Origin: Candidatus Kapaibacterium sp.
GTDB lineage: Bacteria > Bacteroidota > Ignavibacteria > Kapaibacteriales > UBA2268
NCBI GenBank assembly: GCA_937927515.1
Contig: CALBDO010000003.1
Span: forward strand, 67,274-131,273
DNA length: 64,000 bases
Direction of reading: 5' to 3'
Below, one piece after another: positions 6,100 through 56,645 of this stretch. Every line of letters begins with the position of its first letter. Position 1 is the stretch's first letter. Under the pieces are notes generated by a model, which worked only from the letters and a program-made list of their open reading frames with translations, did no database searches and was not told where the DNA came from. The position numbers and the translations under genes were made by a program.

Positions 6100-7407
6100 T
6101 TAAAATAAATTAAAAATATATCCAGCAATTACACAACCAATAAAACTCACTCCAACATATAACCATAAAACTTTTGGCTTGAAAACACCAGACAGCATTA
6201 TTATTGAAGGTAACGATAAACCAGGACCACCAAGTAAGTAACTCAAAGTTGCACCACCTCCCATCCCTTTATGTATTAATGCAAGTGCAGTTGGAACCTC
6301 CACATATGTACACACATACGCTAATACAGCAATAAAAGAAGCAATCAAAACCGAATCCAAACTCTTACCACCAACAAAATTTATAATCAAGTTTGTTGGA
6401 ATTAAAACTTTTATTGCACCTGCAATTAAAACTGCTAAAACAAGATAATAATTTAACTGCAAGAAAAAATCCCATGCAGTAGTGATTAAATTTCTTATCT
6501 TCTGTCTAAAAGGTACCTCCGTATCGCCTGTTGGTAAAACAAAACAGGCTCCAGTTACATCCATTGTAACATTAGTTGTTTGTGGAATATACCATTTACC
6601 TTCCTTATTCCTATCAAGTACTCCTGCTTCGCCTAGAAGGTATAATTTATCTTCTTCATTAGGAGCAAGCTCGTTAGTAGTGAGTCCTTGAGGATTCGCA
6701 ACAAGTTTTTTCCCCACTTCGAAAGCAAATAGTTGGAGTTCTTTTGGAAGAGAAGGTTTTACATTAACTTTAATTAATCTTCGCAAGAACCTCTCCTTTT
6801 TTTGCCAATAGGATGTAACCTGACCAACCAAAAGAGCAATTAGAAAAGTGCCGAGAATCCTACCAATTGCTAATTTCCAACCAAGAACAGAAGCAGTCAT
6901 AAATACAGCTGGGATATTCAACATTGGTGCAGCAATAAGAAATGCCATTGTTGCTCCTAATGGAATACCCGCTTGAACCATGCCAGCAAGTACTGGAACA
7001 ATACCACAGGAACAAATTGGGATTATTGCCCCCGAAATAGCAGCGACAAAATTAGCACCAATACCGCCGTAGCCCATTTTCTTCTTAACCTTTTCCCAAG
7101 GAACAAATACTACCAATGCCGATGCTAATAACATCCCTACAATCCAGTACTGAAATAATTCAACAAGTACTGCTGAACCTTTGATGTAGATGAACCATAA
7201 AGTTTCGAATATATTCAACGAAGGGGGTGTAGCTATTTCTTTTAGTCTAACCTCCTCTCCAGTTATCCCTTTTTCCTGAAGAAGGCCGTATTCGTAGAGC
7301 GAAGTGAACGATAAATCATTATAATAGACGTAAAATAATGCACTGGCATAGAGAATAAAAATTGCTAAAAGGTAATATAGCTCTTTTTTTGTAGGTTTCC
7401 TAAACAT
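6100..7407 (-). CDS. COG0701-type permease (two-repeat CSCG permease often found in ars operons)
   Basis: Polytopic membrane protein with CSCGIVPVLAGMVQAGIPLGATMAFLIAAPMLN and a duplicated half. Confidence 0.7.
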   Translation of the reverse strand: MFRKPTKKELYYLLAIFILYASALFYVYYNDLSFTSLYEYGLLQEKGITGEEVRLKEIATPPSLNIFETLWFIYIKGSAVLVELFQYWIVGMLLASALVVFVPWEKVKKKMGYGGIGANFVAAISGAIIPICSCGIVPVLAGMVQAGIPLGATMAFLIAAPMLNIPAVFMTASVLGWKLAIGRILGTFLIALLVGQVTSYWQKKERFLRRLIKVNVKPSLPKELQLFAFEVGKKLVANPQGLTTNELAPNEEDKLYLLGEAGVLDRNKEGKWYIPQTTNVTMDVTGACFVLPTGDTEVPFRQKIRNLITTAWDFFLQLNYYLVLAVLIAGAIKVLIPTNLIINFVGGKSLDSVLIASFIAVLAYVCTYVEVPTALALIHKGMGGGATLSYLLGGPGLSLPSIIMLSGVFKPKVLWLYVGVSFIGCVIAGYIFNLF

Positions 7408-8177
7408 TAATTACCCCTCTGATACTTGATAAAATATTTAAACGGTTAAAAATAATGAACATTTTCTTAAAATTTTGCTAATTTTTTTGGACCTAAATTT
7501 GTTCAATTATTATATGAATAAGCAGTTCTTATAATACAACTATTTAGCACCGTTTCAAACAAGCTAAAAAGGAAATTCCATCAATAAGTAAAATAGTCAT
7601 TTTGATAAAGTTTAAAAAAGTTTAATGCATCCATGTGTAATGGAACGATTAATTATTCTTATCTGGATGATGAAAGATAATTGCTTTGTATATTTCTGAG
7701 TGCATTTTAAAAAATCTCGCTTTCTCACTTGACAAAAAATAAATCGTGCTTCTTACCAATTCTTTGGAGTTGTCGGGAATGACAAAGGTATAATTAATCC
7801 TACACCATCTTTGTCCAAAAAGGTTATTATTTCGTTCTGTAAGTTATTCCCAAAGGATATACATACAATTAAAATTTGAATAATTACACGACTTGTTTCA
7901 TATTAAAACCTTTACTTTCCAGTTTCTGGAAATTCTGTTCTGTACTTCAAGAAGAAACGAGATAATTTTTACAATTACTTAAATTTAACTTTTCATCATA
8001 CCTATTAAAAGCATAGATAAAATTACAGTAAAACTTTAAAAATGAATTTAAAATTTGGGTCAGATTTTGATTAAAAGGTATTCTTTATATGTTGAATTTT
8101 AGGGAATTAAATTTAATTCCTGTAACTATTGCCAAATAATAGAATATTACAAGCAATTATTGTAATGTTGTAAAAAA

Positions 8178-9260
8178 TTATTTAACTTCGTAATACTTTT
8201 CTTTAAATTTAAGTGCAAAGTTTACAAGAGTTATCAACACAGGAACCTCGACCAGCGGTCCTATAACAGTAGCAAAAGCAGCAGGCGAGTTTAAACCAAA
8301 CACTGCAACTGCAACAGCAATAGCTAATTCAAAATCATTACTACTTGCAGTAAATGATACTGTAGCAGCTTTTTCGTATGATATACCTTGTCTTTTTAGC
8401 AAAAAGAAGGTAAAAAAGAACAAAATAGCAAAATAGAACGTATATGGCAAGGAAACTCTAACAACATCAACCGGCAATTCAATAATTTTTTCACCTTTCA
8501 ACGAGAACATAACAAAGATTGTGAACAACAAAGCCATAGGAGTAAGTAAAGATATCTTTGGTATAAATTTATCAAAGTACCACTCTTCACTTTTTATTTT
8601 TACAAATATGAGTTGAGATATTACACCTAGAGTAAAAGGTATGCCCAAGTAAATTAGAACACTAACGGCTATTTCCAAGATTGAAACCTCGACCAAAGCT
8701 CCCTTCATACCAAATAATGGCGGTAGTACAGTAATAAAAAGGTATGCATAAATTGAATAAAATAGTACTTGAAACAAGGCATTAAAAGCGACGAGCCCAG
8801 CAGCAAGTTCTCTGTCGCCTTTGGCTAAATCATTCCAAACCAATACCATAGCAATGCACCTTGCCAATCCAACGAGAATCACCCCAATGGCTATGTCTGG
8901 CTTATCAGGCAAAAAGATTAATGCAAGGAAAAACATTAAAATAGGTCCAATAATCCAGTTTTGTATTAAAGAAATACTAAGTAATTTTATGTTTTTAAAG
9001 ACCACTGGTAAATTTTTATATTTTACCTTCGCAAGAGGTGGGTACATCATTAATATTAAACCTATTGCAATTGGAATATTCGTGGTGCCAATACTTAAAG
9101 AATCCCAAAAATTTGCAATACCTGGAAATAACGAGCCAAACGCAACACCAATGAACATAGTAATGAATATCCATAAAGTTAGATATCTTTCGAAAAAAGA
9201 AAGTTTTTTAGAAACGGAGACATCAGTTTGTTTTAATTCGAAAGGCTTACCAGTTATCAC
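8178..9260 (-). CDS. acr3: Arsenite efflux transporter, ACR3 family
   Basis: [10 protein letters not shown]...GV..G..FP N-terminus and overall 10-TM ACR3/ArsB-type pattern; 360 aa. Confidence 0.85.
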
Positions 9261-11618: not shown

Positions 11619-11885
11619 GTGTATTCTAAGTTTTTAATTATTATGATAGAAATGTTATTAAGCGAAGCACGAAACGAAAAAATTGTAAAAATCATCTCAA
11701 TAAATGCCTCCAAAGGTGCAAAATACAAGTTGCTCTCACTTGGTTTACATCCAAACGACATCATACAAATTCTTTCAAATCCTTCATTTGGTCCATTATT
11801 AATCAAAAACATATCTAAAGACAATGCAAGAATTGCGATTGGGCGAGTTATCGCTGAAAAAATCCAAGTCGAAAGCATCAATTAA
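11619..11885 (+). CDS. feoA: FeoA ferrous iron transport protein A
   Basis: Small SH3-like protein; LSLGLHPNDIIQILSNPSFGPLLIKNISKDNARIAIGRVIAEKIQVE matches the FeoA pattern. Confidence 0.7.
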   Translation: MYSKFLIIMIEMLLSEARNEKIVKIISINASKGAKYKLLSLGLHPNDIIQILSNPSFGPLLIKNISKDNARIAIGRVIAEKIQVESIN

Positions 11886-13800
11886 AACCATAGTGTTGGT
11901 TGGACAGCCCAACTGTGGCAAGAGCACATTGTTTAACGCTCTTTCGGATATAAAAGTATCTACAGCTAATTTTGCAGGTACAACTGTTGAATATAAAGAC
12001 AGTTTAATTAATATCTATGGGCAAAGTGTTTACATAATTGATTTGCCAGGTATTTATTCATTGACACCATCTGAACCAGCTGAATACGCAACATTCAATT
12101 ACCTCCTGAATAATAATATCGACCTAATAATCAACGTGATTGACTCTACTCTCATAACAAAAAGCTTAGAATTAACAATTGAACTTAGCCAACTCGGGAT
12201 TCCAATTGTTATCGCTCTCAACATGAACGACGAAGCACAAAATAAAGGTATAGAGATTGATAATGAACTTTTATCTCGTTTCTTTGGGGGCATACCGGTT
12301 GTAAAAATATCGGCTCTATTTAGAAAAGGAATGACTGAATTGCTAAATTCAATTTACACTCAGCTTTTTACAGAACCGACTAAACCCGTTCAAATTTTAT
12401 TTTCAAAACCAATAGAGGATGCTTTAGCTAAATTTTCTGGTATTGTAGAAATATCTTTCTCTAAATCCATTCATAATAGATTTTTTTTAATCAAAGCACT
12501 GGAAAATGAAGATATTATAAAAAACTTTGTTAGAACTAATAACCAAGACTTATATTTAGAAATCAAAAGAAACTTGTCTAAACAATTTGGATTGTCTGTT
12601 TTCGAGATTTTTACAAACGAGCGAAATATATTGAGCACTAAAATTTCTCAACAAGTAACCAAACACAATCCCCAGCCTTTGGTGCCATTTATTGAAAAGA
12701 TTGATTTGCTTTTCCTAAGACCTTCGACTGGTTACTTTTTTGCGATTATATTTTTTGTGCTATACTTCACACTCATTTTTATTTTCGGTGGTTTGTTGAG
12801 CGAAATTCTCGAAAAGCCACTGGGAAACCTTTCTATACTTATCGAACCTTTGAAAACAACCACACAGCTCGGGTGGTTTGTTGCCGATGGGTTAATCCAA
12901 GGACTTTTGGGAGCAATTGGTATTGTTTTACCATACTTTTTGCCGCTGTTGTTTTTAACCGCTATACTCGAGGAAAGTGGTTACATGGCGAGAATAGCTT
13001 ATCTTATGGATGTTGTCTTCCATCAGATTGGGCTTCACGGAAAGTCTGTTGCTTCGTTCATAATGGGATTTGGGTGCACAGTTCCAGCTGTATTTGCTAC
13101 AAGGATTATAGAAAATCGAAGAGATAGACTCTTAGCATCCATTCTTATAAATTTCATACCTTGTTCGGCAAGATTGACAGTCATCTTTGCTCTCACAACT
13201 GCGCTAACTGGACCAATTTGGACAATTGTAATTTTTTTCTTTATTCTTCTTGCAATTGCATCTACAGCAAAAATTCTTTCTTGGTTTTTACCAAAACCAA
13301 CTGGTTTAATTATGGAAATTCCTCCACTTCGAATTCCTTCAATTCAAATAGTTTTTAAAAAAACTTATTTCAAACTTTTGGAATTCTTCAAAATCGCTTT
13401 TCCATTTCTTCTGCTTGGAAGTGTCATTTTAGCAATCCTTGAATATTTAAACTTTCATTATTTTGTAAATTCTTTACTATCCCCTTTAATACAAAATATT
13501 TTAGGATTGCCAAAGGAATTGGGTACAGCATTGGTCTTTGGTTTTCTTCGTAAAGAACTCGCTGTATTTATGATTGCCCGCTCATTTGGAACTACTGATT
13601 TACATTTATTACCAATGACGATTACACAAGTTCTAACTTTTATAGTTTTTGTAGTATTCTATCTACCTTGTATTTCCACAACAGCAGTATTTTGGAAGGA
13701 ATTTGGATGGAAACATCTTCTCCTGACAATTACGATTGGGTTGACTATGTCGATAATTTCTGCTTTGTTTTTTAGGTTTGCATTAACAACTTTTTTATGA
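11824..13800 (+). CDS. feoB: FeoB ferrous iron transporter (the true start is probably a non-ATG codon downstream of 11824; the annotated frame overlaps feoA)
   Basis: G-protein domain IVLVGQPNCGKSTLFNALS and a polytopic C-terminal membrane domain. Confidence 0.9.
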   Translation: MQELRLGELSLKKSKSKASIKTIVLVGQPNCGKSTLFNALSDIKVSTANFAGTTVEYKDSLINIYGQSVYIIDLPGIYSLTPSEPAEYATFNYLLNNNIDLIINVIDSTLITKSLELTIELSQLGIPIVIALNMNDEAQNKGIEIDNELLSRFFGGIPVVKISALFRKGMTELLNSIYTQLFTEPTKPVQILFSKPIEDALAKFSGIVEISFSKSIHNRFFLIKALENEDIIKNFVRTNNQDLYLEIKRNLSKQFGLSVFEIFTNERNILSTKISQQVTKHNPQPLVPFIEKIDLLFLRPSTGYFFAIIFFVLYFTLIFIFGGLLSEILEKPLGNLSILIEPLKTTTQLGWFVADGLIQGLLGAIGIVLPYFLPLLFLTAILEESGYMARIAYLMDVVFHQIGLHGKSVASFIMGFGCTVPAVFATRIIENRRDRLLASILINFIPCSARLTVIFALTTALTGPIWTIVIFFFILLAIASTAKILSWFLPKPTGLIMEIPPLRIPSIQIVFKKTYFKLLEFFKIAFPFLLLGSVILAILEYLNFHYFVNSLLSPLIQNILGLPKELGTALVFGFLRKELAVFMIARSFGTTDLHLLPMTITQVLTFIVFVVFYLPCISTTAVFWKEFGWKHLLLTITIGLTMSIISALFFRFALTTFL

Positions 13801-13876: not shown

Positions 13877-14530
13877 ATGGTTAGTCAAGCTGTTCAAGAT
13901 TACTTAAAAGCAATTTTCAAACTTCAGAAGGACAGTCCAGTTTCGACAACTGAGTTAGCAAAAGAATTAAACGTGTCTGGCGCCTCTGTTACGGGAATGT
14001 TAAAACGTCTTGCAAGTATGGGACTTGTTGAGTATAACTCATATCATGGAGCAAAACTAACTCCCTCTGGCGAAAAGGTCGCTTTGGAAACTATACGCTT
14101 CCATCGTTTGCTGGAGCTTTATTTAAAAGAGCAGTTACATTATCCTTTGGACAAAGTCCACGAGGAAGCTTGCAAACTCGAACACTTCATTTCGGAGGAA
14201 TTCATTGAAAGAATTAATGAAATATTAGGCGACCCAAAGTTCGACCCCCACGGACATCCAATCCCTACAAAAGAGGGATTTCTCTTGAATCAAGATGAAA
14301 TTCCTTTGACCGATGCAGAAATAGGTGTATCCTATACAATTGGTCACCTGGAAGATGATAATCCAGAACTTCTTGCATATTTAGAAAGCCTTGGACTTTT
14401 ACCAGGAACTGTTATCAAAATTATTGAAAAACTTCCATTCTATGGACCAATCTCACTGAAAATAAAAAACTCACCCAAAACACATACTATTGGATTCGAG
14501 GTTGCCAAAAGAATATTCGTTCAAAAATAA
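13877..14530 (+). CDS. DtxR/IdeR-family metal-dependent transcriptional repressor with a C-terminal FeoA/SH3-like domain
   Basis: N-terminal wHTH (SVTGMLKRLASMGLV) and a metal-binding/dimerisation region (HEEACKLEHF..HGHPIP). Confidence 0.85.
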   Translation: MVSQAVQDYLKAIFKLQKDSPVSTTELAKELNVSGASVTGMLKRLASMGLVEYNSYHGAKLTPSGEKVALETIRFHRLLELYLKEQLHYPLDKVHEEACKLEHFISEEFIERINEILGDPKFDPHGHPIPTKEGFLLNQDEIPLTDAEIGVSYTIGHLEDDNPELLAYLESLGLLPGTVIKIIEKLPFYGPISLKIKNSPKTHTIGFEVAKRIFVQK

Positions 14531-16932: not shown

Positions 16933-17005
16933 GCCAACATAGCTCAGCTGGTAGAGCAGCTCACTCGTAATGAGCAGGCCGGCGGTTCGAATCCGCCTGT
17001 TGGCT
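16933..17005 (+). tRNA. tRNA-Thr (anticodon CGT)
   Basis: Cloverleaf read by hand. Acceptor GCCAACA/TGTTGGC. D-arm GCTC-AGCTGGTA-GAGC. Anticodon stem GCTCA/TGAGC with loop CTCGTAA. T-arm GGCGG-TTCGAAT-CCGCC. CCA is not encoded. Confidence 0.85.
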
Positions 17006-17010
17006 CTAAT

Positions 17011-18207
17011 TCAGTAATACAGATGAATTTGAAAATGCCACCTTGTCGAACTACTCTCGGTTGATTTAAAAAATCTATATTCTCCTATCAGCTCCAAATA
17101 AGGAATTGGAAAATACTTGACCCCCAAGGTTGAAGAGTAATTATATATTTTCCACACATTTTCTTTGGTAATTGATAGATTAGTAAACCCAGTTTCGAAA
17201 ACAAAGAAAGGTATAAAACCCCTAAAAGGATAATAAAAAATCTGAAAGATGATATTATTGGTTTTCCTCAATTCATTAAGAGAAGTAAAAACATACTCTC
17301 CTGTTATTCCTAAAAATTCAGAAATATTTAGGCCAAAATAACTGCTTGAACACAGAAATTCTCCATTCAATAATATTGAGCTACCAATATATTTGAACAA
17401 TAGAAAATCATCAAATATAGAAGGATAAAATACAACTTTTGTGTTGAAAGTAGGATTATGCTTTACCACAATGGGGATATTCCCAAAAATAGTAATTTGA
17501 GAAATAAAACGGGAATCGAAGGCACCAAAGAATAAGTCAAAACTTTCGTATCTTCTATATGAAAGCTCAATACCAAACTCTGAGTAATCTGGAGGAAAGA
17601 GGCTGGATGTATAGTCCACTGAAGCAATTCTACGGTTAAATCGTGTCATGTCACAATCACGAATGCCAAAGGAAGGCTGAAACTTTCCAATTTGCACTTC
17701 TGGTAGCAAATCCGAAATTTTAAAATTAATCGAAGCAGACCAGTTATCCTGACCTTGAAATACAATCGGAGCAATGTTGTATTGACCATTTAAAGAGAGG
17801 TTTTCATTCATCTTAATCAAAAAATACAATGCGAATTCCATCGGAAAATATCTTCTTTTGGCAAGCTCGGTACGATGCGAGCGAGTAGACTGGAAACGAA
17901 AATCCAAACCAAATGCAAATGGACGTGAAAATTGTTTTTTTGGGGTAACATCAAAAAAATGAATTGTATCCCAATATTGTTCTTTATCAAATAGGCTATA
18001 TATTCTATCGATTTCTTCATTGCCTATCGGAAAATGTGAAGCGTCCCGAATAAATTTCCATCCGAACTCAGTTCGAATTCCACCGCCTTGTGGATTAATA
18101 TGACACTTTGAACATTTGTTGCCCGAGTAAATAGCCAGCTCTAGTGTACCATAAACAACGAAGCTGTAAAGAAAAAAAAGTAACAGAGGAATTAATACCC
18201 TTACCAT
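17011..18207 (-). CDS. Cyc2-like fused monohaem cytochrome c / outer-membrane beta-barrel (putative)
   Basis: Signal peptide, CSKCH about 12 aa after the predicted cleavage site, then ~360 aa with beta-barrel-like alternating aromatics ending in ...FQIHLYY. Confidence 0.5.
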   Translation of the reverse strand: MVRVLIPLLLFFLYSFVVYGTLELAIYSGNKCSKCHINPQGGGIRTEFGWKFIRDASHFPIGNEEIDRIYSLFDKEQYWDTIHFFDVTPKKQFSRPFAFGLDFRFQSTRSHRTELAKRRYFPMEFALYFLIKMNENLSLNGQYNIAPIVFQGQDNWSASINFKISDLLPEVQIGKFQPSFGIRDCDMTRFNRRIASVDYTSSLFPPDYSEFGIELSYRRYESFDLFFGAFDSRFISQITIFGNIPIVVKHNPTFNTKVVFYPSIFDDFLLFKYIGSSILLNGEFLCSSSYFGLNISEFLGITGEYVFTSLNELRKTNNIIFQIFYYPFRGFIPFFVFETGFTNLSITKENVWKIYNYSSTLGVKYFPIPYLELIGEYRFFKSTESSSTRWHFQIHLYY

Positions 18208-18212
18208 AATTT

Positions 18213-18650
18213 TTATTTATGCGGTTGTAGTTTACCCAATTTCCGCGCTTTTATAACATCATCGCTACTGACCTGTACATCCATACTGTTTAGTTCACGA
18301 TAAACAAATTCTAAAATCATTGAAATATCTTCATTATTCAAAGTTGAGTCTATTTCTGTTGTCATTACACCGTAGTAAACTTCTCCATTTACAACTATTC
18401 TGCCACTTCTGCCAAAAAGCATACCCCGAAGCAATTCAATTTTATCACCCTTTTGCACATAATCAGAATTTTTCAAAGGCGGATAGACACCTTTGATACC
18501 TCTGCCATCCTTACGATGACATTTTGAACAATGTTCAATGAATAATTTCTTTGCTTTTTCTTTATTATATGAGAAAAGATTTAAATGAAAACCCAGAATA
18601 AGTAACACAACAAAAGAGTATAGAAAAAAGTATGAATGATATGATTTCAT
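18213..18650 (-). CDS. Membrane-anchored monohaem class I cytochrome c. Start placed at the internal Met (MKSYHSY...); the ORF-track start at 18746 would overlap the upstream gene.
   Basis: N-terminal hydrophobic anchor; FIEHCSKCH haem motif; downstream candidate Met ligand (GVM). Confidence 0.7.
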   Translation of the reverse strand: MKSYHSYFFLYSFVVLLILGFHLNLFSYNKEKAKKLFIEHCSKCHRKDGRGIKGVYPPLKNSDYVQKGDKIELLRGMLFGRSGRIVVNGEVYYGVMTTEIDSTLNNEDISMILEFVYRELNSMDVQVSSDDVIKARKLGKLQPHK

Positions 18651-18654
18651 AAAT

Positions 18655-20508
18655 TTATTCAATGACAAACGATTTCTTGTATCTTCGTAGAATTTTTGTA
18701 GCATCTCTCTTTGCCTCGTCGATATATGAGTAGCCCCACAGAACAACTTTATATTTCAAATTATTGTTTAAATAAAGTCTATCGTAATATGCTCTAAACC
18801 CTTGCCTCTCCCAAAATTCAACTTTCTTCTCAGCAAGTTCCTCACTGGCAACAGTATCCACAACAATTGTAAAAGGTAAAAGCTCGGGCATAATCCAGCG
18901 TATTTCTACTCTTCGATTAAACAAAGACGATATATCATCATTTTCGTCTGTGTAAATAGGTTTACTAATACCTATACCCTTCACTAAAATTTGGTTTGGA
19001 GGCACACCACTGGAAATAAGCCTTGTACGAACTGCATTTGCACGGTCCAAAGACAATTTTAATGGTGAATAATATTGTTCCCTAATTCCAGCAGTTCCAA
19101 TGAGTTCAACTTGCAAATTTCTATGTGCTTTTAGAAGTTGTGCTAAATTGTTTAAGCAAACAGAAAATTCTTCCCCTATTGAAGTATCAGCAAAATTAAA
19201 TAGAGACACAGCTTGATAGTTCGTATAAAAAGTCCTCTCCTTTACAGGATAGGTAAACAAGTCGAAAAACTCCAACTGGTTTGATTGCAAAGTTAATTTA
19301 ATCTCCACATCATTGCACTCTAAAAACTGTCTACTTTTTTCGAAAACAATTGAAAAATAATACTTGTTAGACAGAATACATTCAATAATACCATTTCCCA
19401 CCTCTTGATTTTTCCAAGGAAAGTGGTAGAAATTACCATTTGTTTTGGAAGCTAAATAACGATAGGTCGATGGAGAAACTTCATTCCCTAAAGCAATAAC
19501 GTTAATAGGAGTATGAATTTTTTGGGACTTTTCGATAACATCCTCCAAAGTAAAGTTTATAGAGGAATTGTCCATACGATTAGTAATCAAGACTACTATA
19601 GAGTTGGATTGCGCTTCGATTTCATCCAAAATTAACCAGATGGAACGATATACTGAACTTAATTCATTCCTTATGGGCAAATCTATTGCTTGAAAATCAA
19701 AATAAAATTTATTTGCTCGTTCAAGTGGAATAATGTTTTGAAGTCCGACTCCAAAACAAAACAGAGCAACATTATCTTCAACATCAAGAAACTTAACTGC
19801 GTCGAGAATCTGTTGTTTAAGCTCTAAATCATCTTGGATGACCGAGTAATCAATCAAAAGATATACATTAAGTTTTTCATTAATATTGATATTCTTTGGA
19901 AAATGCTCGAAAGAGTTTCCAATAATTCTTTTTTGACATTTCTGCTCAATTCTAATTTTAAAATCAGAATGGTACTTGCTAAAATCGTAAACCATGTTGC
20001 CAAAATCGTCTAGAACACAAAAAATCAACTCCAAGCTGTCTTTGTTTTCTTGTTGGTTCAAACGGAACACTTTAACTTTAGATACATCCTTCAAAGAACC
20101 TGTTGTAAAGCCAGAGAGGAAGTTCGAGGGTTTAAAATTTTTTTGTTCAAAAATGTTTTCAATAAGACGTGGTCCAGTTTGGACCTTAGTTTTAACTTTC
20201 TGATTATGATTTTCACTGGAGTTAACTAAAACATAAACTGATTGCAAGAGCTGTTTACCATCATTTTTAAATGCAACTATGTCCAATCTAAGAGGCCTAT
20301 CTGGCTTGATGACAATTGAATCAATGGGTTTAAACTTTTCTGTATAACCTCCGACCATTACATAATCAGCATTTTTGAAGTTCCAAAAAACGACTGCACT
20401 ATCGCCGGACTCTAACTCGATTAAATTGGAGATTCTCTCTACTAAAATATTTTTTGTGGAACAAGAAAATAATACAATAACAATTGTTAGAACTAAATAC
20501 TTTCCCAT
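18655..20508 (-). CDS. Lipoprotein with C-terminal OmpA-like and SPOR peptidoglycan-binding domains
   Basis: Lipobox LFSCS. OmpA_C-like LSLDRANAVRTRLISSGV...NRRVEI. Terminal SPOR-like segment (TIVVDTVASEELAEKKVEFWERQGFRAY). Confidence 0.6.
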   Translation of the reverse strand: MGKYLVLTIVIVLFSCSTKNILVERISNLIELESGDSAVVFWNFKNADYVMVGGYTEKFKPIDSIVIKPDRPLRLDIVAFKNDGKQLLQSVYVLVNSSENHNQKVKTKVQTGPRLIENIFEQKNFKPSNFLSGFTTGSLKDVSKVKVFRLNQQENKDSLELIFCVLDDFGNMVYDFSKYHSDFKIRIEQKCQKRIIGNSFEHFPKNININEKLNVYLLIDYSVIQDDLELKQQILDAVKFLDVEDNVALFCFGVGLQNIIPLERANKFYFDFQAIDLPIRNELSSVYRSIWLILDEIEAQSNSIVVLITNRMDNSSINFTLEDVIEKSQKIHTPINVIALGNEVSPSTYRYLASKTNGNFYHFPWKNQEVGNGIIECILSNKYYFSIVFEKSRQFLECNDVEIKLTLQSNQLEFFDLFTYPVKERTFYTNYQAVSLFNFADTSIGEEFSVCLNNLAQLLKAHRNLQVELIGTAGIREQYYSPLKLSLDRANAVRTRLISSGVPPNQILVKGIGISKPIYTDENDDISSLFNRRVEIRWIMPELLPFTIVVDTVASEELAEKKVEFWERQGFRAYYDRLYLNNNLKYKVVLWGYSYIDEAKRDATKILRRYKKSFVIE

Positions 20509-20511
20509 ATT

Positions 20512-21831
20512 CTATAATTTAGTGAAGATTAATTCACCATTATGAGAGTCGATTAGAACCTTGTCACCAGGAGAGAATTTTCCTTCCAAAATTAACAGAG
20601 CAAGCTTATCGGCTATGTGTTTTTGAATTGCTCTTTTTAGTGGTCTTGCACCGAATTGCGGGTCGAAACCGATGTTTGAAATCAAATCTAGCGCTTCTGG
20701 GCTAATTTCGGTCTCTATCCCGCTTTCCTTCAATTTTTTCTTGATTCGTTCGAGTTGTAATTGGGTAATTTTAACAATATCTTCCTTTGTAAGTGGTTTA
20801 AAAAGGATAATATCATCTATTCTATTCAAAAACTCGGGACGCAATCTTTTCTTTAATAAATCAAAAATCTCATCTTTCAGTCTTTCAATGATAATGTCTC
20901 TATTCGATGAATTGAGCATTTCAAGTTTTTCTTGAATAAGCTCGGTACCAAGATTGGATGTCATTATAACAATGGTGTTTTTAAAATTAACAACTCTTCC
21001 CTTACTGTCTGTTAGCCTCCCGTCGTCCAGTACCTGCAAAAGAATATTGAACACATCTGGATGTGCCTTTTCTATCTCATCAAGTAGAACAACAGAATAT
21101 GGTCGACGACGAACTGCCTCGGTCAACTGGCCACCTTCCTCGTACCCAACATAACCAGGAGGAGCTCCCACAAGGCGAGAAACAGAGAACTTTTCCATAT
21201 ATTCGCTCATATCGATTCGCACCATGGCATTTTCATCGTCAAAAAGGAATTCTGCAAGTGCTCTTGCCAGTTCCGTTTTCCCTACCCCAGTGCTGCCTAA
21301 AAAAATGAAGGAGCCAATAGGCCTATTGACGTCCTGTAAACCTACACGAGACCTACGAATGGCATTAGCAACAGATTGAACAGCTTCTTCTTGGTCGACA
21401 AGTCGTTGATGGATTCTTTCTTCCATTTTTAAAAGCTTTGTCCTTTCGCTTTCAAGCATTTTCTGAACTGGTATACCGGTCCATTTAGAAACAACCTCGG
21501 CTATATCCTCTGCGTCTACTTCTTCTTTTAGAAGTTTGCCATCCTTTTGTACCTCTTGCAATTTTTCATTGACTTCGTTCAATTTTTTGTTGAGTTCATG
21601 TATAAGGCCATACCTTATTTCAGCAACTTTGGTTAGATTGCCCTGCCTCTCATACTCATCTGCTTGAAGTCTTAAATTTTCTATTTGCGCTTTATAATCT
21701 CGAATTTGTTGGATTAAATTTTTCTCAAGCTCCCATCTATTACGAAGAGCCTCTCTCTTCTGTTTTAACTCTTCAAGCTCTTGTTCGATTTCATTTAATC
21801 TTTCTTTTGTTGCTTTAATTGACTCATCCAT
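20512..21831 (-). CDS. clpB: ClpB C-terminal half only (middle coiled-coil, NBD2, C-terminal domain). The N-domain and NBD1 (~430 aa) are absent; a gene fragment or split gene.
   Basis: Near-collinear with the C-terminal half of E. coli ClpB (recalled alignment: GSTGVGKTELARALAEFLFD, SRLVGAPPGYVGYEEGG, LLDEIEKAHPDVFNILLQVLDDGRLTD, GARPLKRAIQ). Stop codon 4 codons upstream of the ATG; an AT-rich non-coding region and a terminator lie upstream. Confidence 0.85.
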   Translation of the reverse strand: MDESIKATKERLNEIEQELEELKQKREALRNRWELEKNLIQQIRDYKAQIENLRLQADEYERQGNLTKVAEIRYGLIHELNKKLNEVNEKLQEVQKDGKLLKEEVDAEDIAEVVSKWTGIPVQKMLESERTKLLKMEERIHQRLVDQEEAVQSVANAIRRSRVGLQDVNRPIGSFIFLGSTGVGKTELARALAEFLFDDENAMVRIDMSEYMEKFSVSRLVGAPPGYVGYEEGGQLTEAVRRRPYSVVLLDEIEKAHPDVFNILLQVLDDGRLTDSKGRVVNFKNTIVIMTSNLGTELIQEKLEMLNSSNRDIIIERLKDEIFDLLKKRLRPEFLNRIDDIILFKPLTKEDIVKITQLQLERIKKKLKESGIETEISPEALDLISNIGFDPQFGARPLKRAIQKHIADKLALLILEGKFSPGDKVLIDSHNGELIFTKL

Positions 21832-21949: not shown

Positions 21950-21990
21950 CATCAAATAAAAAAGAAGAGGAAAGTTCCTCTTCTTTAATC
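21950..21990 (-). terminator. Rho-independent terminator for the lipoprotein gene at 22033-22707
   Basis: Perfect 11-bp stem AAGAAGAGGAA / TTCCTCTTCTT (21962-21986) with a 3-nt loop, followed on the minus strand by TTTTTATTT. Confidence 0.5.
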
Positions 21991-32746: not shown

Positions 32747-34657
32747 TTAAACAATAAATTTACCCCGTTTAACGTAATGGGTGTGTAAAAGTTTGTGCGA
32801 AATATGCCCACAAGGACCATCGACTAAGAACTTCTCGTAAATGTATTTGATATGTGGATTTTCGTGAGATTTTCTAATAGGTAATTCTTTGTCTTCATTG
32901 TAAATGGCTTCGGCACGTTTTCTTCTAATTTCTGGACTTGTTGGGATGGGTTGTCCACCTCCACCAATACAACCACCTGGACAAGCCATAATTTCTACAA
33001 AATGGTAATCATCCAACTCTCCATGAATTAATGCTTCCATTACTTTTCTTGCATTCGAGGTTCCGTGGGCAATCATGAACTTAACTTCGAAGCCCTCGAG
33101 AAATCTCCATTCATCTTTAACATCTGTCAAAATAACCGAACCTTGCCTTACCCCATCCATACCACGGCAGGGAGTAATGTCAAGATTCTCAAAAGGTACT
33201 TCCCGCCCAGTAACAATCTCGTAAACTGTTCTTAATGCTGCTTCCATCACGCCTCCGGTAGCACCAAAAATTAAACCAGCACCAGAGGCATTACCAAATG
33301 GCTCATCAAAATAGCTTTTTGGTAGTTCTGGTAAATAAATCCCAGCTTCTTTTATCATTTGAGCAAGTTCTCTTGTTGTTAATCCATAATCGATATCTTT
33401 GTATCCAGAAGCATTCATTTCTGGACGATTGCATTCAAATTTTTTGGCTGTACAAGGCATTACTGCTACAGTTACAATATTTGCTGGGTCGATTTGCATT
33501 TCCTGAGCATAGAATGTCTTAATTATTGCACCAAACATTTGTTGGGGGGATTTGCAAGTGGATAAATAATCTAAGTGTTCTGGATAATAGTGTTCAATGA
33601 ACTTAATCCATCCGGGTGAACAAGAAGTAAATTGTGGCAATTTTACTTCGGGGTCACCAAAAAGGTATTTTCTTTTCAATCTAAGTAAAAGCTCCGTACC
33701 CTCTTCCATTATGGTTAAATCTGCTGCAAAATTAGTGTCGAAAACACGGTCGAAACCAATCATTCTTAGGGCAGTAACCATTTGTCCAGTCATTGAATGC
33801 CCGGGAGGCAATCCAAATTCCTCCCCTATAGCAGCTCGAATTGAGGGTGCAGTTTGAATTACAACATGCTTAGTTGGGTCGTCGATAGCTTTCCATATTT
33901 CATCTGATGGGTCCTTTGCCCTAAGAGCTCCAGTTGGGCAACGATTAATACATTGACCGCAATTAATACAGATGACATCTAATATTGGCTTGTCCATAAA
34001 AGTAGATATTAGTGTAGAATAGCCTCGCCTTGTTGCCTCCAATACCCCAACTTCTTGGAGGTCGATACAAGTACGAACACATCTTTTACAGAGAACGCAT
34101 TTATCCATATCCCGAACTATGGCATAACTTGAGCGGTCTACTTCATAACGTGGTTCTTTTATGTGACCAAATCTGTAGAAATCAACACCATATTCTTTTG
34201 CAAGTCTTTGCAATTCACAATTGTTATTTCTCACGCAAGAATAACATTCACCATAATGTTCGCTTAGCAGCAAGTCTAAGATGTGGCGTCGTGCCTTGCG
34301 AACACGCTCGGATGTTGTCCAGATTTTAATTTTGTTTGTTATAGGATATGCACAGGAGGCCTGCAATGTTCGCATGCCTTCAACTTCAACAACACATACA
34401 CGACATGCACCAGCAAGGCACAAATCCTCGTGATAACATAGCGATGGAATGTGAATATTGTTATTACGACAAGCCTCCAAAATAGTCATTCCAAATGGCA
34501 CCGTATAACCTTTACCATTGATTTCAACATCGATATAAGCTCCGACATCAGCATCTGCTTTGATTTCAACTTTGTGAGGCTTCTGTGCAACTGGTGCCCT
34601 ATTTTGCATTGCATTAATAGCCATTTTTGCCTCGAATTGAGTTCGACATGATTTCAT
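32747..34657 (-). CDS. hydA: [FeFe] hydrogenase catalytic subunit HydA (M3-type: 2Fe-2S, His-ligated 4Fe-4S, two ferredoxin-like 4Fe-4S, H-domain). The start is probably an internal Met (34624 or 34609), which removes the overlap with hydB.
   Basis: L2 MPCTAKKFE and L3 EIMACPGGCIGGGGQP are canonical. L1 reads TSCSPGW (33614-33628) rather than TSCCPxW. N-terminal ferredoxin-like Cys patterns. Confidence 0.9.
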   Translation of the reverse strand: MKSCRTQFEAKMAINAMQNRAPVAQKPHKVEIKADADVGAYIDVEINGKGYTVPFGMTILEACRNNNIHIPSLCYHEDLCLAGACRVCVVEVEGMRTLQASCAYPITNKIKIWTTSERVRKARRHILDLLLSEHYGECYSCVRNNNCELQRLAKEYGVDFYRFGHIKEPRYEVDRSSYAIVRDMDKCVLCKRCVRTCIDLQEVGVLEATRRGYSTLISTFMDKPILDVICINCGQCINRCPTGALRAKDPSDEIWKAIDDPTKHVVIQTAPSIRAAIGEEFGLPPGHSMTGQMVTALRMIGFDRVFDTNFAADLTIMEEGTELLLRLKRKYLFGDPEVKLPQFTSCSPGWIKFIEHYYPEHLDYLSTCKSPQQMFGAIIKTFYAQEMQIDPANIVTVAVMPCTAKKFECNRPEMNASGYKDIDYGLTTRELAQMIKEAGIYLPELPKSYFDEPFGNASGAGLIFGATGGVMEAALRTVYEIVTGREVPFENLDITPCRGMDGVRQGSVILTDVKDEWRFLEGFEVKFMIAHGTSNARKVMEALIHGELDDYHFVEIMACPGGCIGGGGQPIPTSPEIRRKRAEAIYNEDKELPIRKSHENPHIKYIYEKFLVDGPCGHISHKLLHTHYVKRGKFIV

Positions 34658-35807
34658 CTTTGAAATTAGTAACTATTGAAATGAATGGATTTGGAGAGGA
34701 CTGCCCAAGGCCACATTTAGAAGCTATTTGCATAGTCTTTCCCAGTTCTATCAATTCATTTAAATATTTGTGAGAGCATTTACCCTCTTCGAGAAGTTCT
34801 ACTCCTTCGAGAAGTTTTTTGTTTCCAATTCGGCAAGGAGTACATTGTCCACAACTTTCTTCTACAAAAAATTCCATAAAGTTTTTCAATACTTCTAGCA
34901 TATTACGATTTTGGTTGAAGATAATCACAGAACCGCCTGTTGGAATATCTTCGAAAGAAATATTTCTGTCTATTTCGCTCATTGGAACACAAATACCAGA
35001 AGCGCCGCCAATTTGAACAGCCTTTGTATCTTCGGCTCCGACAAGTTCCAAAAGCTCTTTAACTTTTATTCCAAAGGGAACCTCGTATACACCTGGTTTC
35101 TTACAATCCCCAGAAACAGAAATCAATTTCATACCTTTTGATTTCTCGGTACCATACTTTGAAAACCATTGAGCGCCTTTTGAAATAACTATGTATGCAC
35201 AAGCAAATGTCTCTACATTATTTACTATCGTTGGATAGCCAAGATATCCAGTATTAACAGGAAATGGTGGCCGATTTCGTGCTTCCCCTCGGTGACCCTC
35301 CAAAGATTCAATTAGTGCGGTTTCCTCACCACAAACATAAGCCCCAGAACCAAGGCGAATTTCAATGTCGAAGTCAAAATTTGTACCAAGAATGTTTTTA
35401 CCTAAACGCTTTTCTTTTCTCATTCTCTCAAGGTAATCGTTTAAATATTCATAAAGATAAGCATATTCGCCCCGTAGGTAAATAAAACCTTTCTGTGCTT
35501 GAATTGCATATCCACCAATAACAATCCCTTCGAGAACCAATTTAGTATATTCAGAAAGTAGCACACGGTCCTTAAATGTCCCTGGTTCACCTTCGTCAGC
35601 ATTGCAAACAACAAACTTCTTATCGGATTTTGCTGTAAGAGCCAGCATCCATTTAGTCCCAGTAGGAAAACCAGCACCTCCACGACCACGCAATCCAGAC
35701 TCTCTTACTTCCAATACAACTTCTTGCGGGGTCATTTTCAAAGCTTTTTCCAAAGCTTCTCCATGAGCTCTTTCATCAAAAAACACTGTATCATTTATAA
35801 TTGGCAT
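34614..35807 (-). CDS. hydB: NuoF-like NAD(P)H-binding flavoprotein subunit of the hydrogenase (HydB; core-only, no extra ferredoxin domains)
   Basis: GRGGAGFPTGTKW (FMN/NADH site) and the NuoF [4Fe-4S] motif CGQCTPCRIG...C; 397 aa. Confidence 0.85.
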   Translation of the reverse strand: MPIINDTVFFDERAHGEALEKALKMTPQEVVLEVRESGLRGRGGAGFPTGTKWMLALTAKSDKKFVVCNADEGEPGTFKDRVLLSEYTKLVLEGIVIGGYAIQAQKGFIYLRGEYAYLYEYLNDYLERMRKEKRLGKNILGTNFDFDIEIRLGSGAYVCGEETALIESLEGHRGEARNRPPFPVNTGYLGYPTIVNNVETFACAYIVISKGAQWFSKYGTEKSKGMKLISVSGDCKKPGVYEVPFGIKVKELLELVGAEDTKAVQIGGASGICVPMSEIDRNISFEDIPTGGSVIIFNQNRNMLEVLKNFMEFFVEESCGQCTPCRIGNKKLLEGVELLEEGKCSHKYLNELIELGKTMQIASKCGLGQSSPNPFISIVTNFKDEIMSNSIRGKNGY

Positions 35808-35815
35808 AGCTCCTC

Positions 35816-36310
35816 CTACTTCAAATTTTCAATGATTTCAATAACTTTCGATGGCGTAAGTTTTGTGTACACTTGTTCGTTTATTAACATTGCTGGTCCT
35901 TGGTCGCACATACCTATGCAGTGACAATATTCCAAAGTAAATTTCCTATCCGAAGAGGTTTCTCCAAATTTTAAACCCAACTCCCTTTGCAATGTATTTG
36001 CAACAGCATCTTTCCCAGCAAGGTCGCATGATATAGTTTTGCATAATCGAATAATGTACTTTCCCTTCGGTTCAGTACTTAAAAAGCTATAAAATGTTAC
36101 TACTCCATAAACCTCGACAGGATGGATATTCATTTTGTGCGCAATTTCCTGCATGGCAAAGTCGGAAATAAAACCAAACTTTCTTTGAATGTCTTGTAGT
36201 ACTGGTAGTAAGTTCTCTCGACCACTACCATATTTTTCGATTAATTTCTCAACTTCATTGACTATTACGTTATTATCTGGAACAATCATACTTCCCTCAT
36301 TTTTTTCCAA
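35816..36310 (-). CDS. hydC: NuoE-like thioredoxin-fold [2Fe-2S] subunit (HydC)
   Basis: CHCIGMCDQGPAMLIN Cys pattern of NuoE/HoxE; 164 aa. Confidence 0.8.
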   Translation of the reverse strand: MEKNEGSMIVPDNNVIVNEVEKLIEKYGSGRENLLPVLQDIQRKFGFISDFAMQEIAHKMNIHPVEVYGVVTFYSFLSTEPKGKYIIRLCKTISCDLAGKDAVANTLQRELGLKFGETSSDRKFTLEYCHCIGMCDQGPAMLINEQVYTKLTPSKVIEIIENLK

Positions 36311-36698
36311 GGTATTTATTAATTATATCCAGAAGTACATCGGATTTAATGGGTTTTTCAAGAAATTCATCTACAGGAAGGTACTCGCTTACTCCAAAAT
36401 CATAGCCGGAAACTTTTGCAATAGATGTAAGAAGTAATATAGGTTTTTCAAAACCCATATTTCTTAACTTCATTGCCAAAAAGAAACCATCATCTGGCTC
36501 CTCCATCATAACATCGAGCAAAACCAAGTCTGGTCTTTCCCTTTCAATAAGTTCAAAACCATCTTTTGTATTCGTTGCAGAGACAACTTCAATACCTTTG
36601 TTCTTAAGAATTAAACTAACTGCATCGATGATGTCTATGTCATCATCAACGATAGCAATTTTGACCATAAAATCACCTTTATTTTCATAAAAACACAA
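36297..36698 (-). CDS. Single-domain response regulator (CheY-like receiver only)
   Basis: IAIVDDD...DLVLLDVMM...K receiver pattern; 133 aa; no output domain; overlaps hydC by 14 nt. Confidence 0.8.
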   Translation of the reverse strand: MCFYENKGDFMVKIAIVDDDIDIIDAVSLILKNKGIEVVSATNTKDGFELIERERPDLVLLDVMMEEPDDGFFLAMKLRNMGFEKPILLLTSIAKVSGYDFGVSEYLPVDEFLEKPIKSDVLLDIINKYLGKK

Positions 36699-36798
36699 CG
36701 GTTACAAATGCAATCTACGAGTTAAAAACTAATTAGATGTTACAGATTTGAAAGTGTGTATTAAAATGTTTTTGATTTTGTTGTTGAAAATTTTATTT

Positions 36799-38346
36799 CT
36801 ATTCGTTTTCCTGTTGATATTCTTCTACTTTTTCCAATTTTGTGCTCTCATCTTGGATAAAAGGTAATGAAAATGCAAATGTTGAGCCCTTTCCTAAGAC
36901 ACTTTTGACCCAAACTTTTCCTCTCATAGCTTGGACTAATCGCTTCACAATCCACAGACCCAGACCAGAGGATGGTTCATCCCCGGTTGGTTTGGCGCTC
37001 AAGCGAGCACCTCTTTGAAATGCTCGATTTATGTCTTCATCAGACAATCCCAGTCCATTATCTATGACTTGAATTACTACTTTGTCGTCTTTTCTTTCGG
37101 AAGTAACCCGAACTTCTCCACCTTTTTGGGTAAACTTTATAGCATTCGAGACAAGATTGTCTAGGACTTCATAAACTTTATATTTATCAAACAAAAATTC
37201 TTCCAATTTGCTATCAATATCAACATATATGTTTATGTTTTTGAGTTGAGCATTTCGTGTATTAGCTTTGACGACTTCATTAATAACCTCATTCACGTTA
37301 CCTAATTCGAGATTTAAACTTACAAGAGATGATTCAAGAGCAAGAATACGTGAAACCTCCTGAGAAAGGGCAACTATCCTGTTTGAGGTTTGAAGTATAT
37401 CGTCGATAATTTCTTGCTGTTCAGTTGCAGTTAAGTCGTAAGAACGAAGAAGTTCTACGAGATTTTTAATTAAAGCAGCTGGATTTTTGATATCGTGGAT
37501 AATCACTGCGAACAATTCATCTTTCTGTCTTTGGAGCTCCTCCAATTCTTCCTTGCTATTGGATAATTTTTCTACTTTTTCTTTGAGTTCAATATTTTGT
37601 CGTCGCAGCTCTTCTGCGCGCGAGTTTAATGCATCTATCTGGCCACGGAGCGCAGCAATCTCCGCTCGTAAATTGCTATTTTCCAATACAATTTGCTCGT
37701 ACTTTTGCTTATCAATTGTCATCTTGCTTGGTGATTCAGCAAAAGTCCTTTTAGCTTTGGATTTAGACTTATTGATTATGATTAATATTATAATGAAAAC
37801 CAAAAAGGCTGCACCAAAACCAAATAAAAGTGATTTGAGCTCGAAACCATAAAAAACCCTTCTCTCAATATTTTCGGAATTCAAATGTGTAGGAATCTTT
37901 GGAGTTGTCTGTGTTAACTTTTTAATCTCCTTTATTTTTGAGCTTAATTTATTGTTTACAATAAATTCGATATCCAAAGGCTTTGCCACCCATTTATTCC
38001 TTGGATCGAAAGCCTGTATAGTTAATTTATAGAAATCCTCTGGAAGATTTTTGTAATTAATGTTCTTCAAGTTTACTGTATAAGCAGAAGAATCTTTGCT
38101 ATTTTTAATAACAACACGAAAAATAAAAGGAGTTCGCAAAGAAGTATCTTTTGTTTCAAGATGGAAGAAAAAGGAAATGGAATCATTTCTCGAAAAGACA
38201 AGGAAATCGAGTTCCTCTGATGTGAGTTCTCTCCCATTTACTTTAATGAAATCAAGCTTAACTTCTCTATCCTCTGAATGTAAAAACTTGGTATTGAAAA
38301 CAAGAGATAACAAAAGGAACGTTATAAAAAGCTTTTTCATTTTCAA
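36799..38346 (-). CDS. Membrane histidine kinase with a periplasmic Y_Y_Y-like domain, coiled coil, HisKA and HATPase_c
   Basis: Signal peptide or TM, YKLTIQAFDPRNKWVAKPLDIEFIV (Y_Y_Y-like), TM helix, heptad region, H-box IIHDIKNPAA, DNGLGL and GLGLWIV. Confidence 0.8.
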   Translation of the reverse strand: MKMKKLFITFLLLSLVFNTKFLHSEDREVKLDFIKVNGRELTSEELDFLVFSRNDSISFFFHLETKDTSLRTPFIFRVVIKNSKDSSAYTVNLKNINYKNLPEDFYKLTIQAFDPRNKWVAKPLDIEFIVNNKLSSKIKEIKKLTQTTPKIPTHLNSENIERRVFYGFELKSLLFGFGAAFLVFIIILIIINKSKSKAKRTFAESPSKMTIDKQKYEQIVLENSNLRAEIAALRGQIDALNSRAEELRRQNIELKEKVEKLSNSKEELEELQRQKDELFAVIIHDIKNPAALIKNLVELLRSYDLTATEQQEIIDDILQTSNRIVALSQEVSRILALESSLVSLNLELGNVNEVINEVVKANTRNAQLKNINIYVDIDSKLEEFLFDKYKVYEVLDNLVSNAIKFTQKGGEVRVTSERKDDKVVIQVIDNGLGLSDEDINRAFQRGARLSAKPTGDEPSSGLGLWIVKRLVQAMRGKVWVKSVLGKGSTFAFSLPFIQDESTKLEKVEEYQQENE

Positions 38347-45604: not shown

Positions 45605-45627
45605 ATGGCAGAGCCCGTAAATTTCTG

Positions 45628-56554: not shown

Positions 56555-56645
56555 TTATAAAACATACAACTTTTTTTCATTAAATATAAAAAAGCAAGTA
56601 GTAAATTAATAAAAATTTTTTAAAAAATCAAATATAAATTTTTTT

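Follow-up and report, generated by a model that had tools for sequence, protein, structure and literature searches.

The 64,000-nucleotide stretch of DNA analyzed here (hereafter the window) comes from Candidatus Kapaibacterium sp. (GenBank assembly GCA_937927515.1, contig CALBDO010000003.1, positions 67,274 to 131,273 of the forward strand) and contains two adjacent minus-strand genes at 17011-18650. One of them encodes a protein of 398 amino acids (aa) in which a signal peptide, a single CXXCH haem motif and a predicted 16-strand porin barrel are joined. The other encodes a 145-aa class I cytochrome c. The gene pair probably acts as a minimal electron conduit from the outer membrane to the periplasm, and the barrel protein belongs to a family that resembles, and is distinct from, the Cyc2-type fused cytochrome-porins.

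The gene pair and its products

The fused monohaem cytochrome-porin gene (17011..18207, minus strand; stop codon 17011-17013) was delimited from the list of open reading frames (ORFs) and the sequence. Residues 1-20 (MVRVLIPLLLFFLYSFVVYG; 18148..18207) were read by eye as a signal peptide with Arg3, a hydrophobic core and V-Y-G at -3 to -1. Cleavage is likely before T21 (MVRVLIPLLLFFLYSFVVYG followed by TLE), and in the alignment the mature end of the homologues lines up at [AS]-T-P-E. The N-terminal haem segment (residues 21-96; 17920..18147) carries the only CXXCH of the protein, CSKCH at C32-H36 (window 18100-18114), 12 residues past the likely cleavage site. Residues 97-398 (17014..17919) are predicted to form a 16-strand beta-barrel with a short hairpin (residues 193-202) in a long loop and an aromatic C-terminus (...WHFQIHLYY, last residue Tyr398). 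No match to the 398-aa protein was found in Pfam or NCBIfam, and single-sequence and profile searches of the PDB returned nothing relevant.

The cytochrome c gene (18213..18650, minus strand, ATG at 18650) lies 5 bp upstream of the barrel gene. Its product has an N-terminal hydrophobic helix, either an anchor or a signal, and CSKCH at residues 41-45 (window 18516-18530), with a distal Met about 50 residues further on. It matches Pfam Cytochrom_C (PF00034; 5.6e-7, 31.2 bits against a cut-off of 21.3 bits), and its closest NCBIfam match is the ccoP domain (1.1e-8). In the PDB it is most closely related to the cytochrome c domain of Cu-nitrite reductase (1.5e-13), to Thermus c552 (8e-9) and to CcoP. 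When five orthologues were aligned, CSKCH and Met96 in GVMTTE were invariant. Judged by these sequence features, the partner is a His/Met-ligated class I cytochrome c of the c552/CcoP-domain type.

Barrel and cytochrome c genes hold the only two CXXCH motifs in real ORFs of the whole 64-kb, 35% GC window, and because there is no other, their adjacency is not considered to be chance. The original prediction, made from the letters of this stretch, had described the signal peptide, the single CXXCH about 12 residues past cleavage and the WHFQIHLYY end of the 398-aa ORF, and also the membrane-anchored class I cytochrome c with CSKCH beside it. All of this was borne out. It had placed the cytochrome c gene downstream, which was corrected here to upstream because both genes are on the minus strand.

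Conservation, predicted fold and gene neighbourhoods of the family

A word-indexed search found 24 homologues, of which the named ones are all annotated as 'hypothetical protein' and come from metagenome-assembled genomes (MAGs) of Kapaibacteriota, Ignavibacteria or Bacteroidota. Judging by the names of these MAGs, hot-spring mats may be the source habitat. An exhaustive profile search extended the family to 562 clusters (representatives at 50% identity) at E<=1e-3, and to 106 at E<=1e-30, while a second word-indexed search with a broad alignment, in which 8000 candidates were scored, added hardly any. The family is common in Kapaibacteria, Ignavibacteriota and Bacteroidota and in many unassigned metagenomic lineages. 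When its members were compared with Pfam, only sporadic weak matches to generic barrel models were obtained. Neither Pfam nor NCBIfam has a model for this family or for canonical Cyc2.

In the 24 close homologues, which were not selected for the motif, C32, C35 and H36 are invariant (24/24). CXXCH is also present in 128/128 full-length family members, by construction, since this set was chosen for CXXCH within the first 95 residues. The residues around the motif form a signature in 127 sequences: A-[TL]-P-[QRE]-[FYLM]-[SAT]-L-x-[TS]-G-N-[RK]-C-x-x-C-H-[VI]-N-x-Q-G-G-G-x-R-[NT]-[ED]-x-G-W.

When the protein was modelled using AlphaFold2 with the 24-sequence alignment, 16 strands were obtained at a mean predicted local distance difference test score (pLDDT) of 68.5. 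With 114 sequences the pLDDT rose to 89.8 (predicted template modelling score 0.87), and the 16 strands lie between residues 97 and 397. The N-terminal segment is helical (helices 22-28, 32-35, 47-55 and 64-70; pLDDT 74-88 over residues 21-70). The modelled barrel is closed and antiparallel, as in porins, and ends in an aromatic residue, with Y/F at the last position in 118/129 family sequences. Its top fold matches are OprP/OprO-type porins; no solved cytochrome-porin was among them, and the structure library contains none.

Three positions in the barrel stand out as candidate distal ligands or haem contacts. Met123 is kept in 126/129 family sequences, and His395 in 121/129 and in 51/51 aligned divergent metagenomic members. 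Position 187 is His in 95/129 and Met in 34/129 sequences of the core family, with nothing else observed. The Met form co-occurs with Asp185->Cys (RDCDMT vs RxDDHT) in the clade that contains the window protein, where residues 185-187 correspond to 17647-17655. Such an alternation would fit an axial ligand and may represent a distal-ligand switch that retunes the haem potential. We also considered His/Met187 as a universal feature. This was rejected, as D or Q occupies the column in the more divergent metagenomic subfamilies, whose alignment at this point is uncertain.

Carriers of electrons are recurrent neighbours of the barrel gene. The cytochrome c gene lies directly 5' of it in the window and in the four inspected loci L001, L002, L003 (35% identity) and L124 (42% identity), while the distant members L125 and L126 have a dihaem 112-aa cytochrome as neighbour. 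A different module was found in L127 (4490-7233), L128 (4001-5993) and L130 (3318-6219). In these, the barrel gene is accompanied by genes for a protein of about 100 aa with two transmembrane (TM) helices (VDEFxxGLLP), a YceI-like protein and a Rieske [2Fe-2S] protein with a twin-arginine translocation (TAT) signal, and no cytochrome c partner is present. At the P0052 locus a Rieske protein, a 329-aa cytochrome and YceI lie beside the barrel gene.

Metagenomes were then scanned with a degenerate DNA signature, which gave 120 loci, 105 of them with a family ORF at E<1e-10. At these 105 loci, CXXCH occurs in 46/165 adjacent same-strand ORFs (28%) and in 7/719 ORFs more than 1.5 kb away (1%), an enrichment with an odds ratio of 39 (Fisher P 5e-29). 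A frequent layout, seen in a high-GC metagenomic subfamily, has a lipoprotein-like monohaem cytochrome of about 275-300 aa upstream, the stop codon of which overlaps the barrel start by 4 bp (L172:3089-3958, L216:1466-2362, L176:3728-4552, L149:2548-3369 and L231:7074-7940). This cytochrome has a lipobox (...AGC), the motif FTPIC-x-x-CH and a C-terminal region that looks Ig-like. This conserved pairing with c-type cytochromes is in favour of the original prediction, in which the cytochrome c was a plausible periplasmic electron acceptor or donor.

Relationship to Cyc2 and the putative route of electrons

Cyc2 is defined by a signal peptide, a single CXXCH, an upstream AXPXFAR[Q/K][T/Y], a downstream PXL and a 16-strand OprO/OprP-like porin (PMC8406198). 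An authentic Cyc2 set was assembled by scanning one genome per species for DNA encoding FARQT, a gap of 3-5 codons and CxxCH. PxFARQT-xxx-CxxCH was present in 115 loci, always with a gap of 3 residues, including Acidithiobacillus, Sideroxydans, Gallionella, Thiomonas, Burkholderia and one Bacteroidetes MAG. The window protein shares the layout: a signal peptide as read from the sequence, a single CXXCH near the mature N-terminus and a 16-strand OprO/OprP-like porin, within a total length of at least 365 aa.

When profiles of 129 family members and 84 Cyc2 sequences were compared using hhalign, the full-length match had a probability of 93.9% (E 1.5e-7) over 352 co-linear columns, and the haem segment alone reached 96.5% (E 7.5e-10). 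Reversed-sequence controls gave E-values of 0.02-0.37. The idea that this similarity is due to CXXCH alone was rejected, as it survives removal of the motif: the upstream 14 residues with CXXCH deleted gave P 5.3e-6 (reversed control 0.28). Past the haem motif, no similarity to the Cyc2 profile was seen (E 0.029). Both families share a register of Pro at -10, an aromatic residue at -8, a small residue at -7, Thr/Ser at -4 and Gly at -3. The best BLASTP pairs have 40-47% identity over 33-70 N-terminal residues at no more than 44 bits and would therefore be lost in a large database. The architecture is thus shared with Cyc2, and the haem segments are probably homologous. The computational checks named in the original prediction all turned out positive, with a predicted barrel, an invariant CXXCH in unselected homologues and a significant profile match to Cyc2, and none of the outcomes that it had listed as refuting was observed.

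We favour the reading that the pair is a minimal electron conduit. The 398-aa protein would be exported, bind one covalent haem c at C32-x-x-C35-H36 and fold into the 16-strand porin-type barrel. Its short haem-bearing N-terminal segment would be held at or inside the barrel, with the haem sitting at the periplasmic half of the pore or within it, and the membrane-tethered cytochrome c encoded upstream is taken as the periplasmic redox partner. A small soluble redox species would enter the pore and exchange one electron with the barrel-held haem. The electron would then pass to the periplasmic cytochrome c and onward to the respiratory chain, e.g. an aa3-type oxidase as in related Kapabacteria, which encode ACIII (alternative complex III), aa3 oxidase, bd oxidase and a bifurcating HydABC hydrogenase (PMC6338057).

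The direction of flow is somewhat more probably inward, an external reductant being oxidized, given that the partners belong to a high-potential type. Cytochromes c of the c552/CcoP type and Rieske proteins are typically high-potential carriers that donate electrons to terminal oxidases or reductases. By analogy with Cyc2, Fe(II) would be the leading substrate candidate, a tentative choice to which we give clearly less than even credence, other soluble reductants or oxidants being possible. Falling just short of an even chance, in our opinion, is a broader proposal: that the fused monohaem cytochrome-porins include a second family, widespread (at least 562 clusters at 50% identity), which has only the haem-binding N-terminus in common with Cyc2, is wired in different lineages to different carriers of single electrons (a class I cytochrome c, a lipoprotein-like one, or Rieske plus YceI) and may handle a substrate other than Fe(II).

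A number of observations weigh against the conduit reading and its Cyc2 analogy. When the barrels alone were compared with those of Cyc2, hhalign gave a probability of 1.8% (E 0.027), which is not significant. Upstream of the haem motif, Arg is found at -6 in 0/127 family sequences (L79, Q11, I10, M8 and others) and Gln at -5 in 11/127, and the window protein reads TLELAIYSG at the place of AXPXFAR[Q/K][T/Y], a motif that is unique to Cyc2 and served as an inclusion filter (PMC8406198). Downstream, the window protein has CSKCH-I-N-P-Q-G-G-G in place of a PXL motif; Pro is found at +3 in 62/127 sequences, followed by Q-G and not by x-L. For sequence homology to known Cyc2, where the published criterion is BLAST E<=1e-5 or a FeGenie HMM score above cut-off, the picture is mixed: beside the significant profile match, a hidden Markov model (HMM) built here from Cyc2 did not match the window protein and gave other family members no more than 26 bits. 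As Arg/Gln and PXL are missing and no similarity is detectable between the barrels, the family is, by published criteria, a distinct sister family and not a member of Cyc2. The original prediction had called the protein a Cyc2-like fused cytochrome-porin with the layout that defines the Cyc2 type. The layout and the profile match support this, with the caveat that a protein without FAR[Q/K][T/Y] and PXL is Cyc2-like and not Cyc2 in the published sense.

The remaining points against concern the model, the locus and the organism. The AlphaFold2 model was built without haem and so gives no haem position or distal ligand; we infer haem attachment, outer-membrane location, direction of electron flow and substrate. 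Position 22 of the window protein is Leu (CTA, 18142-18144), where 126/129 family members have Pro, including a 99%-identical protein. The two forms differ by a single base, which may reflect either genuine variation or a mistake in sequencing or assembly. A HydABC-type [FeFe] hydrogenase cluster, putatively bifurcating (NuoE/NuoF-like proteins and an [FeFe] large subunit), lies at 32747-38346, and because of it the organism may be largely anaerobic. No terminal oxidase or ccm genes were found within the 64-kb window. An iron-handling theme had been read from the nearby feoAB-dtxR genes. FeoB (11824-13800) and a DtxR/FeoA-domain regulator (13877-14530) are indeed encoded on the strand opposite to the barrel gene, 2.5 kb from the pair and past a GT2-TPR gene and tRNA-Thr. 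They are near the pair in only 1/4 inspected loci (L001), being lost in L002, L003 and L124, and a functional link by proximity was therefore rejected as not conserved.

Four other readings were weighed against the minimal conduit. That the protein is a true Cyc2 orthologue, a divergent but dedicated Fe(II) oxidase feeding the respiratory chain, is unlikely. It would account for the layout, the OprP/OprO template, the motif register, the full-length hhalign match and the adjacent c-type cytochrome, as a small c-type cytochrome is adjacent in 37/86 canonical Cyc2 loci. In those loci, however, the partner is usually a downstream dihaem cytochrome of about 220 aa, as in Acidithiobacillus cyc2-cyc1, and not an upstream monohaem cytochrome or Rieske/YceI. 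The family also fails the PXFAR[Q/K][T/Y] filter and lacks PXL, it scores poorly or not at all with the Cyc2 HMM, and its barrel has no detectable homology to that of Cyc2. The function of even the divergent Cyc2 Cluster 3 is considered uncertain (PMC8406198).

Similarly unlikely is an outward conduit, in which metabolic electrons would leave by way of the cytochrome c and then the barrel haem and reduce an acceptor outside the cell or within the pore, e.g. soluble Fe(III), humics or oxygen/peroxide. One haem is able to pass electrons either way, the window carries a fermentative-type [FeFe] hydrogenase, and multihaem cytochromes adjoin some relatives. If position 187 were the distal ligand, its His form would also give low-potential bis-His members and its Met form higher-potential His/Met members. 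On the other hand, c552/CcoP-like partners and Rieske proteins, as is in part general knowledge, are typically high-potential donors to oxidases, and known outward conduits use multihaem wires and not one haem.

Less probable still is a haem porin that serves outside respiration. It might, for example, take up iron or haem, sense redox state, or detoxify Fe(II) or peroxide at the surface of the cell. The feoAB genes and DtxR-type regulator near the pair in the window and in L001, the lack of oxidase genes in the neighbourhood and the OmpA/VWA envelope protein in the gene run are in keeping with such a role, but in L002, L003 and L124 feo is lost while the cytochrome c partner stays, and what is enriched family-wide is electron carriers, not transporters. 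Finally, an ordinary porin, in which CXXCH is a metal site or disulfide or the Cyc2 resemblance a compositional artefact, is very improbable: beta-barrels do yield spurious profile similarity, the barrel-only comparison is not significant and a few members weakly match generic barrel Pfams, but CXXCH and its flanking signature are strictly kept (in the 24 unselected homologues and the 127 motif-selected sequences), the reversed-sequence controls fail, the only two CXXCH in 64 kb are adjacent, and neighbouring c-type cytochromes are enriched (P 5e-29).

For the minimal electron conduit, the consequences reach beyond this locus. Cyc2 serves at present as the chief marker gene of neutrophilic Fe(II) oxidation, and surveys detect it by BLAST or HMM together with the FAR[Q/K][T/Y] motif (PMC8406198). 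The sister family is probably invisible to such surveys because it would fail those filters, and since it is common in many lineages, estimates of the organisms that exchange electrons with their surroundings could change. Surveys that used FeGenie have reported 'iron oxidation genes' for Ignavibacteriales (PMC8478452), in which canonical Cyc2 and the sister family are not distinguishable; some family members may possibly have been called Cyc2 cluster 3 already. No description of the family was found in the literature on Cyc2 in Ignavibacteria/Kapabacteria or on cytochrome-porins with Rieske/YceI. What is new is the Cyc2 design in an unrecognized, sizeable sister family with different partners.

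Kapaibacteria are generally described as heterotrophs or sulfur metabolisers, and the gene pair suggests an unrecognized extracellular redox capability in them. The family also offers a natural experiment, with one barrel-haem scaffold joined to cytochrome c in some clades and to Rieske/YceI in others. If position 187 is the distal ligand, clades would differ in a retuned haem potential and perhaps also in their substrate or flow direction.

The original prediction had further held that such a module is not expected in a saccharolytic organism of the Fibrobacteres-Chlorobi-Bacteroidetes (FCB) type, which was overstated. Iron-oxidizing Chlorobium carry Cyc2 (PMC9342728). An uncultured Bacteroidetes MAG encodes a canonical Cyc2 of 446 aa (SIPSFARQTNLPCSSCH...; L072:4246-4284), with the gene for a 161-aa monohaem cytochrome downstream of it; canonical Cyc2 and the new family thus both occur in the FCB group.

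The gene run, other window features and known systems

The pair stands at the end of a tightly packed minus-strand run in the order ClpB half, OmpA/VWA/SPOR protein, cytochrome c and barrel, with gaps of 3-5 bp. The first gene (20512..21831, minus strand) encodes a 439-aa C-terminal half of ClpB (AAA_2 and ClpB_D2-small in Pfam), just upstream of which a terminator-like hairpin lies at 21961-21986 on the minus strand. It is followed by the gene for a 617-aa lipoprotein-like protein (18655..20508, minus strand; Pfam OmpA 3e-12, weak VWA_3 and SPOR), which ends 4 bp before the cytochrome c gene. The unit is bounded downstream by a plus-strand tRNA-Thr(CGT) at 16933..17006, found using ARAGORN, which is convergent with the barrel gene. 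A sigma-70 promoter scan gave no usable information, as the organism is of the Bacteroidota type.

The OmpA/VWA gene is also upstream of the pair in L001 and L002 and is absent in L003 and L124; it is probably co-transcribed with the pair and outside the conserved core. The ClpB half is kept in the same order, as a separate gene, in L001 and L002. ClpB itself is seemingly split into two genes 18 kb apart, the 439-aa half and a 469-aa AAA/AAA_2 protein at 39981-41390.

Several other features of the window were recorded. On the minus strand, an ArsP_1-type permease (6100-7407) and an SBF/ACR3-like transporter (8178-9260) may form a metalloid-resistance cluster (6100-9260). A response regulator and a histidine kinase follow the hydrogenase cluster (32747-38346) on the same strand. 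A BatA/VWA/TPR run of the 'aerotolerance' type at 43902-46326 lies beside a gene for a DUF6263 protein (46377-47378). At 50594-63817, two giant minus-strand ORFs flank a gene for a 713-aa OmpA-family protein; one is 1986 aa long (DUF7948, SBBP beta-propeller, beta-helix and Ig domains), the other is 1677 aa long, and both probably encode cell-surface proteins.

Compared with known systems, the 145-aa partner resembles Thermus c552, CcoP domains and the cytochrome c domain of Ralstonia Cu-nitrite reductase in its CXXCH and distal Met in G-V-M-T, with matches over about 100 aa at E-values from 1e-13 to 1e-5. Unlike these, it has its own N-terminal hydrophobic anchor and adjoins a cytochrome-porin gene, not an oxidase or reductase gene. 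General 16-strand porins (OprP/OprO, OmpU, PorB, Omp32 and chitoporin) share 6-14% sequence identity with the barrel, lack the haem segment and are not paired with electron carriers. The porin-cytochrome complexes MtrCAB, MtoAB/PioAB and Geobacter Pcc likewise move electrons over the outer membrane via a barrel. Their hallmark is a separate periplasmic cytochrome with several haems that is inserted in a barrel of 20-26 strands, a feature that the gene pair lacks.

The closest counterparts are the known Cyc2 proteins, namely A. ferrooxidans Cyc2, Mariprofundus Cyc2PV-1, Leptospirillum Cyt572 and the members of Clusters 1-3 (McAllister 2020, Keffer 2021). Unlike in Cyc2, no member of the present family has been characterized. 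Its proteins are shorter (about 365-410 aa vs about 420-540 aa) and end in W-x-x-Q-x-H-x-[FY]-[YF] where Cyc2 has ...W-x-x-F. Mostly Leu and a variable residue take the places of Arg(-6) and Gln/Lys(-5), PXL is replaced by [VI]-N-x-Q-G-G-G-x-R-x-x-x-G-W, and the barrel shows no detectable homology. The partners are different too: a monohaem cytochrome c encoded upstream, a cytochrome of about 280 aa that is lipoprotein-like, or Rieske with YceI and the small two-TM protein. In common with Cyc2 are the signal peptide, the single CXXCH about 12 residues into the mature protein, a 16-strand barrel of about 300 aa best matched by OprP/OprO, the upstream register A-x-P-x-aromatic-small-x-x-T/S-G-x-x-C and, often, an adjacent gene for a small periplasmic c-type cytochrome.

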